This document shows positions 36,833 to 39,097 of a stretch of DNA of 64,000 bases, piece by piece. The stretch is from a virus, in IMG/VR virus record IMGVR_UViG_3300020421_002453, positions 1 through 64,000 of that record; one strand, 5' to 3'. Position 1 is the first letter of the stretch. Each line of letters starts with the position of its first letter. The notes below the pieces were generated by a model. It made no database searches. It was given only the letters and a program-made list of their open reading frames with translations, and was not told the DNA's origin. The position numbers and the translations under genes are program-made.

Positions 36833-39097
36833 ATGTCAACGCAGATAACAAGAACAAAAGAATTTATAAATTATATTACAGGTAGTGCTGGTGGATGGCC
36901 ATCATTATCAAATGCTGGAATTCTTGGTAATATAGACTATGTCATAGAAAGTGGTTCCAACGAAGTAAAATTTATAGAAATGAATACCAACATTGGAATT
37001 ATTGGTAGTGCAGCAATACAAACAGGTAGTTACTTCGATGTAATATCAGATTATGCAAATGAAAAAGGATATACGACTACTTATGTTTACGGAGTTAATC
37101 AGAATGGTAAAAAAAATCCATCAACACTTCAACAACCATTAATTAGTGAGAGTTTTGCACGACATGATATACCGACCAATTTTGAATACAACAATAATAC
37201 ATCACACACTTATTTTTCACAAACAGGTCAAGCACAATATTCAGGTAGTTTCCACTTATTTATACAAACGCCTTGGTATGGTGATGATAATTTAAAAAGT
37301 ATAGTTAGTGGTTCATTTAATAAAACTACATTTAGAACATTCTTGGGTAATTCACCATTTAGTTCTTCTTTGATATCATTATTTGATAAGGATAATTATA
37401 CACCAAATAATAATTATCCAGATTATGTAGTTAAAACTGCAACTCAAGATTCGAGTATTCAAACTAATAAAATTGGTTTTTACACATACAATTCAACAAG
37501 TTCAAGTTATCAAAACGGAGTTGATAGTGGTTCTTTGATAGAAGAATATATTGTTCATAGTGGAAGTTATAAAGAGGGGCAATCATTCTTGGGTGTAGGT
37601 AAAATAGATTTTATGTTGACACCAGAAAAGGTTGTTGTGTTTGGTGATAGAGATGCTGGTAAAGATATTAAACTAAAACCGACAAAAACAGATAGTTGGG
37701 ATTATATATCACGAAGAGCAAAAACATCTGCAAGTGGTAGTTTAATTAAAATGTATGATGGTTCAACAAAACAAGTTCAAGATGTTGAAGTTGGAGATGT
37801 TGTTTTAAGTTATCAACCATATGGAATGCCAGATGAAACAAAAGATTATTTATCTTATACCACAACAGATTTAAGTGGTTCCACAACACAAGGTTCTATT
37901 GTTGTAGAAGCAATGAACACAAAAAATTATGGATATTATTTAATCAATGATAGTATTAAAGCACCTTATAATTTACAACAGGCAAGTAGTGATGTTAGAT
38001 ATTTTGTAAAACAAGGAGATACTTGGGAATGGATAACAACAGATGTTATTAGTACTGGAGATTATCTTTTAGACCCAAGTGGTAATGAAGTAGAAGTTGT
38101 ATCAAAGACAGAACATGATGGTGATGAACTTTGGTATTCATTAGATGTTGAGGATATTGATACTTACTTCCAATCAAATATATTGGTTCATAATATTCCA
38201 CCGAAATGTTTTGTAGCAGGAACACCAATCACTATGGGTGATGGAACTACAAAAGTTATTGAAAGAGTTGAAATTGGTGATGAAGTTATGAATTATAATT
38301 TCAAAGATGAAGAAGTTCAGACAGGTAAAGTTACCACGATTGATATGCCAATTCATGCTGATATTATAGAAATAAGTTTTAATAGTAAAACTACTAAAAA
38401 TACCTTTGACCATCCTTATTGGGTTGTTGGAAAGGGTTGGAGTTCATATAAACCAGAGTGGACTAAAAAACGATATGATATAGAATCAAACCAATTAGAA
38501 GTTGGTGATAAGTGTTTAGAACTTCGTGATGGTAAATTAGTGGAAAGAGAAATTACTAATATTGTTGAAGATATAAATCCAGTCCAAACTTATTCATTAG
38601 AAATAACAACAAACCATAACTATTTTGCAAATGATGTATTAGTTCATAACAAATTCTGTTTAATGGAAGACCAAGTAATTAATATGGGAGATGGTGTTTA
38701 TAAAAGAATTGATGAGGTAGAATTAGGTGAAAGTATTTTACAATACGATGAAGAAACTGAAGAGTTTAAAGAGGGTAAAGTAAATGTTATAAGAAAGAAA
38801 CTACATGATAATTGTTATGGAATCAAAGTTGAAAGTGGACAAACAATTAAAGCAACTGATAACCATCCATTTTTATTGAGAGATAAAGGTTGGTCTACAA
38901 TTGGTGAAAACAATCCAACATTTTTACAAGATGGTGGTGGTATTATAAAAGTTGGTGATTATGTTAGAGATATAGATGGATGGGTAGAAATTGTAGAAAT
39001 CAATAAAATTGAGGGAGAATATACAACATATAACTTGTTAGAACAAGATTATGGAACTATTATTGCTCATGATATTGTAACTCACAATTCACCTTAA
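36833..39097 (+). CDS. ATP-grasp-like N-terminal domain plus three tandem Hint (intein-like) domains
   Basis: N-terminal ID...FIEMNTN. Hint units at aa 298-454, 459-606 and 609-752, each ending HN; the last two begin CFVAG/CLMED and carry TxxHP. Confidence 0.85.
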   Translation: MSTQITRTKEFINYITGSAGGWPSLSNAGILGNIDYVIESGSNEVKFIEMNTNIGIIGSAAIQTGSYFDVISDYANEKGYTTTYVYGVNQNGKKNPSTLQQPLISESFARHDIPTNFEYNNNTSHTYFSQTGQAQYSGSFHLFIQTPWYGDDNLKSIVSGSFNKTTFRTFLGNSPFSSSLISLFDKDNYTPNNNYPDYVVKTATQDSSIQTNKIGFYTYNSTSSSYQNGVDSGSLIEEYIVHSGSYKEGQSFLGVGKIDFMLTPEKVVVFGDRDAGKDIKLKPTKTDSWDYISRRAKTSASGSLIKMYDGSTKQVQDVEVGDVVLSYQPYGMPDETKDYLSYTTTDLSGSTTQGSIVVEAMNTKNYGYYLINDSIKAPYNLQQASSDVRYFVKQGDTWEWITTDVISTGDYLLDPSGNEVEVVSKTEHDGDELWYSLDVEDIDTYFQSNILVHNIPPKCFVAGTPITMGDGTTKVIERVEIGDEVMNYNFKDEEVQTGKVTTIDMPIHADIIEISFNSKTTKNTFDHPYWVVGKGWSSYKPEWTKKRYDIESNQLEVGDKCLELRDGKLVEREITNIVEDINPVQTYSLEITTNHNYFANDVLVHNKFCLMEDQVINMGDGVYKRIDEVELGESILQYDEETEEFKEGKVNVIRKKLHDNCYGIKVESGQTIKATDNHPFLLRDKGWSTIGENNPTFLQDGGGIIKVGDYVRDIDGWVEIVEINKIEGEYTTYNLLEQDYGTIIAHDIVTHNSP

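Follow-up and report, generated by a model that had tools for sequence, protein, structure and literature searches.

The gene at positions 36833..39097 (+) of the 64,000-nucleotide stretch of viral DNA analysed here (the window; IMG/VR record IMGVR_UViG_3300020421_002453) comes from an uncultured marine T4-like phage and encodes a predicted ATP-grasp-type ligase domain followed by three Hint domains. In the reading that we hold with somewhat more belief than doubt, the Hints with an N-terminal cysteine (Cys-Hints) are self-removing modules that cut or splice themselves off the tail of a phage ligase-Hint1 core, and the short linkers between them are junction remnants. The protein belongs to a large family, found on viral contigs only, whose conserved core consists of the ligase, a degenerate Hint1 and a short [IL]PP-x tail, and whose members carry zero to three optional C-terminal Cys-Hint units. 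No paper on this ligase-Hint1 family was found in the literature.

Anatomy of the gene

The gene is a single ATG open reading frame of 754 codons plus stop, present once in the genome record, and reads in the order ligase, Hint1, IPPK, Hint2, KF, Hint3, SP. The first-pass annotation had described this layout of an N-terminal domain and three Hints with IPPK, KF and SP junctions, and had given I, K and S as the +1 residues; the reading frame and the residue positions bear out both points. The Hint units measure 157, 148 and 144 aa, in agreement with its statement that no endonuclease is inserted. Pfam recognises units 2 and 3, and unit 1 has the Hint fold by structure. All three belong to the bacterial intein-like (BIL) type, with Tetrahymena BIL2 and a Clostridium BIL as their nearest solved relatives, and these best PDB matches (6tmm/6y75 and 2lwy) favour autoprocessing-type Hints over homing inteins, as had been proposed.

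Pairwise identity among the three units is 23–31%, which marks them as old, diverged copies, and 17 independent IMG/VR contigs carry the three-Hint gene too, with 78–95% identity; 11 of them cover residues 1–754. The possibility that the tandem array is an assembly artefact can thus be dismissed. The TATTTAT motif noted earlier is present at 36792–36798, but chance alone would put 50.5 ± 7.8 copies of the heptamer in the window, where 42 are found, so it gives no evidence of a dedicated promoter.

A permuted ATP-grasp fold in the N-terminal domain

Residues 1–297 (36833..37723, +) are predicted by AF2, Foldseek and VIA-align to adopt a circularly permuted ATP-grasp-type amide ligase fold, which supports the earlier suggestion of an ATP-grasp-like head. 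The domain ends at K297|T298, and its FIEMNTN motif occupies residues 47–53. The AF2 model (pLDDT 90.3, pTM 0.87) matched YgiC, YjfC, GSH synthetases and GspS in Foldseek (E 1.6e-7 to 1e-4). The best ten VIA-align rows (Z 9.4–12.2), spanning model residues 1 to 281–297, comprise glutathione/homoglutathione synthetases, GSS-like effectors, YgiC, GspS, trypanothione synthetase, the putative GspS 3n6x and Cp1B. The classic ATP-grasp enzymes RimK, Ddl and LysX/ArgX align only from residue 76–81 onwards (VIA-align, Z 5–6), and this late start, at about residue 80, points to a circular permutation in which the ExN-bearing segment of the ATP-grasp fold has moved to the N-terminus. The structure prediction that the first-pass annotation had called for thus gave a ligase fold of the GSS/GspS/YgiC/Cp1B type.

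Sequence comparison placed the domain in neither GSP_synth, GSH_synth_ATP nor any other ATP-grasp Pfam family. No Pfam family matched the window's N-domain at E ≤ 10, the family profile found no PDB sequence match in it, and hhalign detected no relation to E. coli YgiC (probability 0.3). One weak Pfam match (E 0.09) connects residues 30–62 of protein P0125 with the ExN segment of Dala_Dala_lig_C. Residues D35, E49-x-N51, S159/S161, D197 and E237 are invariant across the family, and G160, K164 and K201 nearly so; D35, E49, N51, D197 and E237 may correspond to residues that bind Mg in GspS and GSS. It is from the modelled fold only that we call the domain a ligase; its activity and its substrate we infer, and the invariant D35, E49 and N51, together with the weak P0125 match, suggest that the domain may be catalytically competent.

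Hint1 and the tail of the core

Hint1 (aa 298–454; 37724..38194, +) is a degenerate BIL-type Hint with Thr298 at position 1, intact blocks F and G, and the ending VHN at residues 452–454. Its AF2 model (pLDDT 85.8) has BIL2 6y75 (E 1.7e-8) and BIL 2lwy as best Foldseek matches (E about 2e-8, TM 0.67–0.71). There are 43 PDB matches by structure at E ≤ 1e-3, and those listed are all BILs, inteins, intein homing endonucleases or Hedgehog domains. The combination of an N-terminal Cys/Ser nucleophile with a block-B TxxH is not found in Hint1. Position 1 across 80 sequences is S in 40, T in 29, I in 8 and M in 1 (2 gaps), and a conserved YGYYLINGSIKxP stands where TxxH would be. Hint1 is therefore a degenerate Hint member, in fold only, although its VHN ending is kept in 78 of 78 sequences.

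IPPK (aa 455–458; 38195..38206, +), for which the model is of low confidence (pLDDT 63 in the last block), is the conserved tail of the ligase-Hint1 core and serves as the junction to Hint2. Every Hint1 junction starts with [IL]P, which extends to [IL]PP in 122 of the 127 tailed cases; beyond [IL]PP the linker varies by 0–3 residues. The same peptide closes proteins that lack further Hints: seven of the nine cases in the protein set in which Hint1 is followed by the end of the protein finish with VHN-LPPK/LPRK/LPKK/IPGK/IPKKE-stop, and six viral-contig reading frames without any Cys-Hint end in the tail (four VHN-IPPK, one IPQK, one LPPK). At L061 the frame closes with TAA TAA, 20 nt from the next gene. 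Two deep family members end in VHS-stop, without the tail. The [IL]PP-x peptide is thus the native C-terminal tail of the core, and the fully conserved VHN followed by an invariant [IL]P suggests that the tail itself may be cleaved or used.

The cysteine-bearing Hints

Hint2 (aa 459–606; 38207..38650, +) carries C459, T524-F-D-H527, VHN at 604–606 and Lys607 at +1. Type A BILs, as defined in the account of PMC4031507, have Cys1, a block-B TxxH, a terminal His-Asn and no +1 nucleophile, and Hint2 shows all of these features, with no Cys, Ser or Thr at +1. Family conservation is high (C1 in 44/45, block-B His and HN each in 45/45), and the +1 residue is K in 42/45 and E in 3/45. A PDB phmmer search returned BIL2 6tmm (E 6e-11), BIL 2lwy (E 7e-10) and ataxin-1 chains (E 3e-7); with the family profile the two BIL matches sharpened to 3e-19 and 5e-16. 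Pfam matches are PT-HINT, Hom_end_hint and AXH (E 1.8e-23), and aa 460–564 exceed the gathering cut-off of the AXH module (PF08517; 83.7 bits vs 33). Context and catalytic residues identify the matched stretch as the first two-thirds, from the N-terminus, of a Hint of BIL type, and we read the match as kinship between AXH and Hint, not as ataxin-like function.

The KF junction (aa 607–608; 38651..38656, +) leads to Hint3 (aa 609–752; 38657..39088, +), which resembles a class 1 mini-intein: it carries C609, T675-D-N-H678, H751-N752 and Ser753 at +1, the residues of a class 1 intein. In the family the Cys, TxNHP, HN and +1 Ser are each conserved in 22/22, and the domain matches are Intein_splicing and Hint in Pfam and intein_Nterm in NCBIfam. 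With 144 aa and no endonuclease family found in Pfam and NCBIfam scans, Hint3 is a mini-intein at most. The protein then ends in SP and the stop codon (39089..39097, +).

Four-Hint relatives have a further unit, HT, where the window's SP-stop sits (S-RL/SF-Cys...). HT is the commonest terminal unit of the family and is absent from the window's protein. It has Cys1 and T..HP in 72/72 and no terminal HN; VLVSDE stands there instead in 72/72, within the invariant acidic ending VLVSDES(D/E)T(E).

The linkers after these units hold their first residue only. Those after Hint2 start with K (K, KI, KF, KL, KGSF, KGGPGSF), and those after Hint3 start with S (S, SP, SSF, SRL, SGPGDS, SEPEF). Between Hint2 and Hint3 (n = 26) they are KF in 20, KL in 4, KFI in 1 and KFPF in 1, and between Hint2 and HT they read K, KI, KGSF, KGGPGSF, KSSF or KGGGSF. 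Hint3 is followed by the end of the protein as SP in 9, S in 1 and SRP in 1, and by HT through SSF in 7, SRL in 3, SRF in 2 and SEPEF in 1. A fixed first residue with a variable remainder is the pattern of a splice-junction constraint, not of a defined peptide product. The linker survey asked for earlier therefore gave a divided answer, with [IL]PP kept and the Hint2 and Hint3 linkers conserved in their first residue only. Alleles without Hint3 have the linker K(G/S)SF and those with it have KF[H3]SSF or SRL; the Hint3-less linker resembles the joined flanks, which is suggestive of an intein-like placement, the putative host site being a short linker between other Hints.

Family architecture and selection

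The proposed survey of Hint copy number covered 121 proteins and found zero to three Cys-Hints. With N for the ligase and H1 to H3 for the Hints, the architectures are N-H1-HT (71), N-H1-H2-HT (20), N-H1-H2-H3-HT (12), the window's N-H1-H2-H3 (9), N-H1-H2 (3) and single or N-terminally incomplete forms (6). The N-H1-only forms end VHN-[IL]P[PKRQ]K-stop. In a 75-row tree built from the N-H1 core and rooted by midpoint only, the deepest branches are all N-H1-only except P0131, which has one H3-like unit; Cys-Hint forms fall within one group of 67 rows (support 99), and architecture changes at least 13 times.

The family is also mosaic. Protein P0008 is 98/100/100% identical to the window's protein in Hint1, Hint2 and Hint3 and just 56% in the N-domain, and between the window and L011 dS is 0.19 in Hint3 and 0.72 in the N-domain; Hint3 dS lies below that of the N-domain. 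Omega is 0.26–0.58 in the N-domain, 0.12–0.25 in Hint2 and 0.11–0.55 in Hint3, which indicates that purifying selection on Hint2 and Hint3 is no weaker than on the ligase. To judge from these sequence comparisons, the add-ons are gained, lost and recombined, yet are under purifying selection and have essentially invariant catalytic residues. That a unit so easily lost by a stop codon is nevertheless kept in this way suggests some benefit.

Gene context

The gene sits in the gp44–gp62 island, and 2OG oxygenase genes come next, together with a sulfotransferase gene or one that resembles it. P4H-type 2OG oxygenases (PF13640, 2–5 copies), a GNAT gene and the sulfotransferase-like gene are syntenic with it. 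The gp44–gp62 context is common to clades with and without Cys-Hints; gene context tracks the core rather than the Hints. Across the 85 loci analysed, no conserved gene that might serve as acceptor tracked the presence of Cys-Hints. In the tail-less clade, scans of two loci (L076 and L080) turned up no PF13640-type neighbours, a single evolutionary contrast, and a sulfotransferase and a 2OG-type hydroxylase still adjoin the two deep VHS-stop members.

Proposed processing and alternative readings

In the self-removal reading, the ligase would stay permanently fused to Hint1, and ligase, Hint1 and tail would form the functional core of a virus-only family; in the window's phage, two endonuclease-free Hints of BIL and mini-intein type, predicted to be catalytically intact, would have been appended to that tail. 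We infer all Hint chemistry, for every step. After translation, Cys459 would form a thioester with the preceding K458 and Cys609 with F608, and Asn606 and Asn752 would cyclise. Hint3 would splice canonically through Ser753, and Hint2, which has no +1 nucleophile, would cleave or splice by type-A-BIL aminolysis. According to the accounts in PMC4031507 and PMC7664689, BILs mostly cleave, and type A can splice by aminolysis. The net result would be removal of the Cys-Hints, leaving the ligase-Hint1 core with IPPK, or with IPPK-KF-SP if both units splice. The exchangeable add-ons may be selfish passengers or a pro-domain or regulatory device. A point against this reading is that the catalytic residues of the downstream Hint3 and HT need no conservation if release of the core were the sole purpose.

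The thioester might instead be put to use. In a single-use conjugation like that of BUBL or Hedgehog proteins, which we regard as unlikely while giving it real weight, the thioester at the ligase tail would be passed to an amine and the ligase-Hint1 core attached covalently without ATP. The acceptor could be Lys607 through its epsilon-amine, a lysine on some other protein of the phage or its host, or a small amine, polyamines being one example. The transfer of thioesters to external nucleophiles, raised in the first-pass annotation, or to lysine has a real precedent in BIL2, the best solved relative of Hint2 by both single sequence and profile. Counted from Cys1, the block-B His of Hint2 falls at 69, matching H69 of BIL2, and the prevalent +1 Lys of Hint2 parallels the lysine-directed chemistry of BIL2; HT, with Cys1 and TxxH and no HN, would be Hedgehog-like in activating its N-side only, and the purifying selection on easily lost add-ons also fits. 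However, many members, including all the deepest branches except P0131, have no Cys-Hint and hence no thioester, and the repeated gain and loss of the architecture, a cargo that is an enzyme rather than a ubiquitin-like tag, the missing acceptor gene and the variable residue before Cys (K, F, L, I or none) all speak against conjugation. A wider version, in our estimate quite unlikely, makes the array a virus-encoded, ATP-independent, single-use acyl-transfer device in which each Cys-Hint would turn the peptide bond before it into a thioester meant for a chosen amine, and which anchors the ligase core or transfers the [IL]PP-x tail after cleavage at Asn454, the tail possibly being hydroxylated or sulfated by neighbouring enzymes before transfer. 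In its extreme version, a C-side-only Hint1 and an N-side-only next unit would be a natural SICLOPPS-like pair cyclising a Pro-Pro peptide. A very unlikely alternative is that nothing is processed and the Hints stay on the ligase as stable modules with a structural or binding role, such as AXH-like interaction domains. Hint1 clearly is now a permanent, non-splicing domain of the core, and Hint2 strongly matches the non-catalytic eukaryotic AXH in Pfam and in ataxin-1; against this, the near-invariance of Cys1, block-B His and HN in Hint2 and Hint3, and of the Hint3 +1 Ser, is unexpected for a mere scaffold, and the closest relatives are active BILs.

The first-pass annotation had itself proposed that IPPK, KF or a spliced KFSP are products of a peptide-making, RiPP-like device. 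Asn454 cyclisation and the next Cys thioester would excise and activate [IL]PP-x (and KF and SP), and neighbouring enzymes would perhaps hydroxylate or sulfate a peptide that is released, ligated or even cyclised. The half-sites around the first linker are complementary, as Hint1 retains only the C-side (its conserved VHN) and the next unit brings the N-side machinery. The conservation of [IL]PP, the syntenic oxygenase, GNAT and sulfotransferase-like genes, and the lack of PF13640-type neighbours in the tail-less clade point the same way. However, the same tail closes Hint-less members, where a thioester cannot form; the VHS-stop members keep their sulfotransferase and hydroxylase without a tail; residues after [IL]PP vary, as do the KF and SP positions, with the +1 residue alone fixed; one 754-aa protein per di- or tetrapeptide would be very costly; and the ligase domain would be left without a role. 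No conserved core peptide dependent on flanking processing sites was found. The micro-peptide or RiPP reading is weakly supported, and we consider it highly improbable.

Relation to known systems

Hint domains are known as selfish inteins, activators of Hedgehog-type cargo, releasers of toxins and, in ciliates, dispensers of ubiquitin-like proteins. To these the present family adds Hints that follow one another head to tail and have diverged in function, one of them C-side-only, others full and one N-side-only, on the tail of an ATP-grasp ligase that is an orphan by sequence. Hint2 fits the type A BIL of Clostridium thermocellum (2lwy), which Hint1 also matches structurally with a TM of 0.67, but lies in an array on the tail of a phage enzyme beside degenerate and mini-intein-like Hints. 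BIL2 of Tetrahymena thermophila BUBL1 (6tmm, 6y75) is the best solved match of both Hint2 and Hint1, and BUBL1 is likewise a polyprotein with Hints between short junctions and a lysine acceptor. Its cargo, however, is ubiquitin-like and its host a ciliate, whereas here the cargo is an ATP-grasp ligase and the family viral; its Hints alternate with cargo, whereas those of the phage abut, with linkers of 1–7 residues. None of the library scans found a Ubl domain, and the protein is thus not a BUBL-type polyprotein. Hint3 shares its catalytic residues and the lack of an endonuclease with class 1 mini-inteins, and the linker of the Hint3-free alleles is suggestive of an intein-free site, but Hint3 occupies a Hint-Hint junction or the C-terminus (C-extein SP) rather than a conserved site of an essential protein. 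HT, with Cys1 and TxxH and no block-G HN, resembles Hedgehog/Hog and type-B BILs and would serve to cleave or activate, on its N-side, a cargo at the N-terminus; it differs from them in having an invariant acidic tail and no sterol-recognition region, and the window protein has no HT.

Among permuted ATP-grasp ligases, E. coli YgiC and YjfC are peptide-spermidine ligases, and the permuted form of glutathione synthetase is the eukaryote-type enzyme. The N-domain shares its fold over residues 1–297 with glutathione synthetase, GspS/trypanothione synthetase, YgiC/YjfC and the fungal Cp1B (9cjn), and its D...ExN motif, putatively metal-binding, is close to the N-terminus, where the permuted form should have it. 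It differs in its length (297 aa vs 370–600), in having no detectable sequence similarity and in its fusion to Hints. Cp1B, in the account of PMC12568646, likewise has no Pfam match, is recognisable by structure only and adjoins Fe/2OG oxygenase genes.

The ligase-Hint family, abundant in ocean viromes, points to a putative amide-forming reaction in a widespread group of large marine phages, encoded between their clamp-loader genes and near hydroxylases and a sulfotransferase-like gene. A single scaffold with anywhere from 0 to 3 intact Hints makes a natural series in which to follow Hint gain, disabling and domestication, and the compact units of about 145 aa, which may need no +1 nucleophile to splice or cleave, would be useful for protein engineering.

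Gene anatomy and reality of the Hint array

The gene is a single ORF at 36833..39097 (+) encoding 754 aa, as given by the ORF listing and its translation, and the landmarks of the first-pass annotation were all found at their residues. The N-terminal domain carries FIEMNTN at residues 47–53. The first Hint unit (H1) opens with T298, at the site equivalent to Cys1 in the two units that follow, and closes with VHN (452–454) followed by IPPK. The second (H2) runs from C459 through T524-F-D-H527 to HN (605–606) and is followed by KF, and the third (H3) runs from C609 through T675-D-N-H678 to HN (751–752), followed by SP and the stop codon. 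Hint/intein signals were detected by both Pfam and NCBIfam in units 2 and 3.

An assembly artefact or a recent tandem duplication is ruled out, because the three units have diverged to 23–31% pairwise identity and the three-Hint gene recurs on 17 independent IMG/VR viral contigs at 78–95% identity, 11 of which span residues 1–754. The TATTTAT motif at 36792, previously credited to the gene as its own, is present; as evidence of a dedicated promoter it was dropped, since the window holds 42 matches against 50.5 ± 7.8 in shuffled sequences. Only 41 nt separate the gene from its upstream neighbour and 21 nt from the one downstream, which leaves no space for a small partner gene adjoining the ligase.

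A permuted ATP-grasp fold in the N-terminal domain

Residues 1–297 were not recognised by the sequence libraries searched, Pfam giving nothing at E ≤ 10. A PDB profile search and hhalign against Escherichia coli YgiC likewise failed to assign the domain, and there were 0 matches at E ≤ 1e-3 among BFVD viral structures. An atlas search with the domain yielded ATP-grasp-type leads only, and one relative gave a weak match (E 0.09) to the ExN segment of D-Ala-D-Ala ligase. Exhaustive HMMER searching of 1.84 billion representatives found only 40 proteins at E ≤ 1e-3, and the nine distant members examined from these all fall within the ligase-Hint family.

The earlier guess of an ATP-grasp domain is supported at the level of fold. 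The AlphaFold2 model, built on a 24-sequence alignment, is confident (pLDDT 90.3, pTM 0.87), and its leading Foldseek matches in the PDB are YgiC, YjfC, eukaryote-type glutathione and homoglutathione synthetases, glutathionylspermidine synthetase and trypanothione synthetase, with E from 1.6e-7 downward. The same enzymes, together with Ligase Cp1B, fill the top ten rows of VIA-align, which is independent of Foldseek (Z 9.4–12.2, spanning residues 1 to 281–297); the following row falls to Z 6.5. The classic, non-permuted ATP-grasp enzymes RimK, Ddl and LysX/ArgX aligned only from about residue 80 onwards at Z 5–6. This is what one would see if the segment with the D...ExN metal-binding motif now lies N-terminally, the arrangement of the permuted GSS/GspS class. 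D35, E49 and N51 do not vary across the family. The domain is a predicted ligase whose catalytic competence and substrate are both inferred. Cp1B offers an instructive parallel in having no Pfam domain, in being found by structure and in having an oxygenase gene nearby: its authors state that it was recognised solely via Foldseek matches to homoglutathione synthetase and YgiC/YjfC, and that its gene cluster also contains an Fe/2OG oxygenase (PMC12568646).

Classes of Hint unit

H1 is a true Hint fold (model pLDDT 85.8), matched best in the PDB by BIL2 (6y75) and another bacterial intein-like domain, BIL (2lwy), at TM 0.67–0.71, with inteins and Hedgehog ranking behind. Of 80 distinct sequences, 69 have S or T at position 1 and nine have I or M; block B is absent, and 78/78 keep both the F/G blocks and the final VHN. 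As judged from these motifs, H1 is half-disabled. H2 retains all catalytic blocks and has Lys at +1 in 42/45, and so conforms to the definition of a type A BIL, namely all catalytic blocks without a +1 nucleophile (PMC4031507). By sequence its closest solved relatives are BIL2 (E 6e-11) and the Clostridium BIL (E 7e-10), joined, against expectation, by the AXH domain of ataxin-1 (E 3e-7). H3, with all blocks and a +1 Ser in 22/22, resembles a class 1 mini-intein.

A fourth, terminal class (HT), the commonest in the family, is absent from the window. Cys1 and TDDHP are present in 72/72, and an invariant VLVSDE takes the place of HN; by these features the class is Hedgehog-like or type-B-like. 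In HT units such as that at the C-terminus of the database protein P0009, this acidic VLVSDE tail (72/72) is followed by S(D/E)T(E). The HT tail is reminiscent of acidic C-terminal tails that certain ATP-grasp enzymes modify.

An H1-type Hint also ends a 1304-aa ‘large intein domain protein’ encoded beside tail-fibre genes in Phage NCTB (L074; LT598654, 548–4462). Here Cys1 is still present after a Gly6 run, and the unit ends VLVHN-APVDQKH-stop. It is apparently an active version of H1, placed C-terminally in an unrelated phage protein and once more trailed by a short tail.

Family architecture and the conserved core

A protein homology search gave 345 matches among 8000 scored candidates. The 120 matches listed all derive from metagenome sources, P0083 being labelled a Woesearchaeota MAG protein. 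The survey of Hint copy number called for by the first-pass annotation shows that it varies. Across 121 classified proteins, the N-terminal domain (N) and H1 are followed by HT in 71, by H2-HT in 20, by H2-H3-HT in 12, by H2-H3 (the window type) in nine, by H2 in three and by H2-H3-H2 in two; four are N-H1 or forms without N. Distant members are mostly N-H1 only. The endings are ...VHN-[IL]P[PRK]K-stop in P0122, P0125, P0127 and P0128 and ...VHN-IPKKE-stop in P0123; in P0130 and P0132 the stop comes directly after ...VHS, and P0142 has a Gly/Thr/Tyr-rich extension that is unrelated. The N-H1-only form also occurs in six viral-contig ORFs, which end in VHN-IPPK (L061, L062, L063, L069), IPQK (L065) or LPPK (L068). 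In L061 no Hint remnant lies past the stop codon; the coding sequence closes with IPPK-TAA-TAA, 20 nt before the start of the following gene.

A FastTree phylogeny of N-H1, rooted by midpoint only, covers 75 of the 123 proteins with a complete core; to save time, 48 of the 71 N-H1-HT rows were left out. Its deepest branches are all N-H1-only save P0131, which has one H3-like unit; forms bearing Cys-Hints (H2, H3 and HT units with Cys1) lie inside one 67-row group with support 99, and at least 13 architecture changes are required. On this tree, and given the Hint-less members that end in the tail, what is conserved at the core is the ligase with H1 and the [IL]PP-x tail; the Cys-Hints were added later, are optional and have repeatedly been gained and lost.

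No whole-protein relative was found among named phages: tblastn against 50,697 phage records returned 16 with partial single-Hint matches covering ≤27% of the query. Megablast of window 30000–45000 gave no match, and two pattern-limited scans of genome contigs found no cellular homologues. The article texts searched yielded no account of an ATP-grasp domain fused to Hints or of Hints in such tandem arrays; in the passages that pair the two domains, ATP-grasp is named in reference lists only. The phiCbK and CBB phage papers describe ordinary inteins only. The parts, BIL/intein-type Hints and permuted ATP-grasp ligases, are of known kinds, and we regard their fused, arrayed and virus-only architecture as undescribed.

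Phage and gene neighbourhood

The source record is a 73-kb IMG/VR virus, 34% complete by CheckV, which encodes a tail sheath, DnaB-like helicase, ribonucleotide reductase (RNR), family-B DNA polymerase and sliding clamp. This gene content, and the 44% identity of the polymerase to its best named relative, indicate an uncultured T4-superfamily phage. A phage-encoded SusC-type TonB-dependent receptor at 27771–30533 (CarbopepD_reg_2 and Plug domains) hints at a Bacteroidota host.

The ligase-Hint gene sits in a 5-kb accessory island between the clamp-loader genes gp44 (AAA+ gp44-like, 35170–36093) and gp62 (gp62-like, Phage_clamp_A, 41011–41442). Upstream of it are a Zn-ribbon ORF and a GNAT gene; downstream come two 2OG oxygenase genes of PF13640 and one sulfotransferase-like gene. 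The Zn-ribbon-like ORF (36090–36350, 86 aa, two CxxC pairs) lies directly after gp44, as does its homologue in most related loci covering that region. Island content differs among related phages.

Neighbour order is stable in the first 73 related viral loci, with two to five oxygenase paralogues, and is the same in N-H1-only clades; in the tail-less VHS clade the downstream genes still include one of Sulfotransfer_4 type (E 5e-24) and one of Asp/Arg-hydroxylase type. Since the neighbours persist where Cys-Hints or tail are missing, they travel with the ligase core and not with either of these. The synteny tables of the related loci showed no acceptor gene conserved in step with the Cys-Hints. 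In the deepest clade (VHS-stop), a Vut_1/YhhQ-type transporter and a DUF5020 protein are encoded upstream of ligase-H1 (L076, 3709–9628; L080, 4126–9099), with a class II aaRS-like gene also in the upstream flank of L076 and a weakly QueC-like gene in that of L080. The Sulfotransfer_4 and Asp/Arg-hydroxylase-type genes are seen downstream in L076.

Selection, exchange and linkers

Omega was estimated by Nei-Gojobori for the window against four close loci, giving 0.26–0.58 in N, 0.28–0.78 in H1, 0.12–0.25 in H2 and 0.11–0.55 in H3. The low values in H2 and H3 indicate that the add-on Hints are not decaying. For the same genome pairs dS is far lower in H3 than in N (0.19 vs 0.72 for the window and L011), and P0008 matches the window protein (36833–39097) at 98/100/100% identity in H1/H2/H3 but at only 56% in N, a sharp mosaic that indicates recombination bringing together different ligase heads and Hint blocks. 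Within the protein, it is generally the ligase head that evolves fastest.

Linkers were surveyed in 157 proteins with any unit. H1 is followed by IPPGK (55), IPPK (26), IPPRK (13), LPPK (13), IPPF (5) or rarer forms, in which [IL]P is invariant and [IL]PP occurs in 122/127 tailed cases. After H2 comes K with 0–6 variable residues (KF 20, KI 9, KL 4, KGSF 4, KGGPGSF 3, K 2, others), or E in three terminal cases, and after H3 comes S with 0–5 variable residues (SP 9, SSF 7, SRL 3, others). The +1 residue is the sole fixed position at each junction type, which fits constraints of junction chemistry and not a defined peptide product. The linker without H3 is K(G/S)SF and that with H3 is KF[H3]SSF or SRL; H3 looks like an intein inserted just ahead of a Ser.

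Proposed mechanism and alternatives

In the best-supported reading, which we hold to be somewhat more probable than its negation, the Cys-Hints detach themselves from the ligase tail. Thioesters would form at K458|C459 and F608|C609, and Asn606 and Asn752 would cyclise; H3 would splice canonically via Ser753, and H2 would cleave or splice by type-A aminolysis, routes that follow mechanisms summarised in PMC4031507 and PMC7664689. Such processing would leave a ligase-H1 core of about 51 kDa with ...HN-IPPK at its end (...IPPK-KF-SP should both units splice) and liberate units of about 16–17 kDa. A different proposal, that the Cys-Hint thioester is put to productive use, is the main rival, although we consider it unlikely. 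It draws on the conserved +1 Lys of H2 and on BIL2 being the closest solved relative of this unit, for the providers of the BIL2 structure report that it becomes joined to a lysine by an isopeptide bond and that its N-terminal cargo is dispensed without ATP (PMC8616854). Two observations speak for some function beyond passive riding: these Hints persist under purifying selection although a C-terminal module is easily lost, and downstream units keep their catalytic residues. Against an essential role stands the frequency of members with no Cys-Hint.

The first-pass annotation had proposed that autoprocessing releases or ligates micro-peptides (IPPK, KF or KFSP) in a peptide-tagging or RiPP-like device. 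Complementary half-sites on both sides of [IL]PP-x and adjacent prolyl-hydroxylase-type genes would suit such a device; the variable linkers, fixed at +1 alone, and the Hint-less members ending in the same tail speak against IPPK, KF and SP as products, and we judge it highly improbable. A non-processing scaffold is hard to square with the invariant catalytic residues and is very unlikely.

Likeness of H2 to the AXH domain

The Pfam AXH module (Ataxin-1/HBP1) matches window 38210–38524 (aa 460–564, the N-terminal two-thirds of H2) at E 1.8e-23, with 83.7 bits against a 33-bit cut-off and over profile positions 1–114 of 116. No literature linking the AXH domain with inteins was found. PDB AXH chains of ataxin-1 and HBP1 match H2 at E 3e-7, a value that falls to 5.5e-11 when the family profile is used. 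These matches suggest that the eukaryotic AXH domain is related to BIL-type Hint domains.
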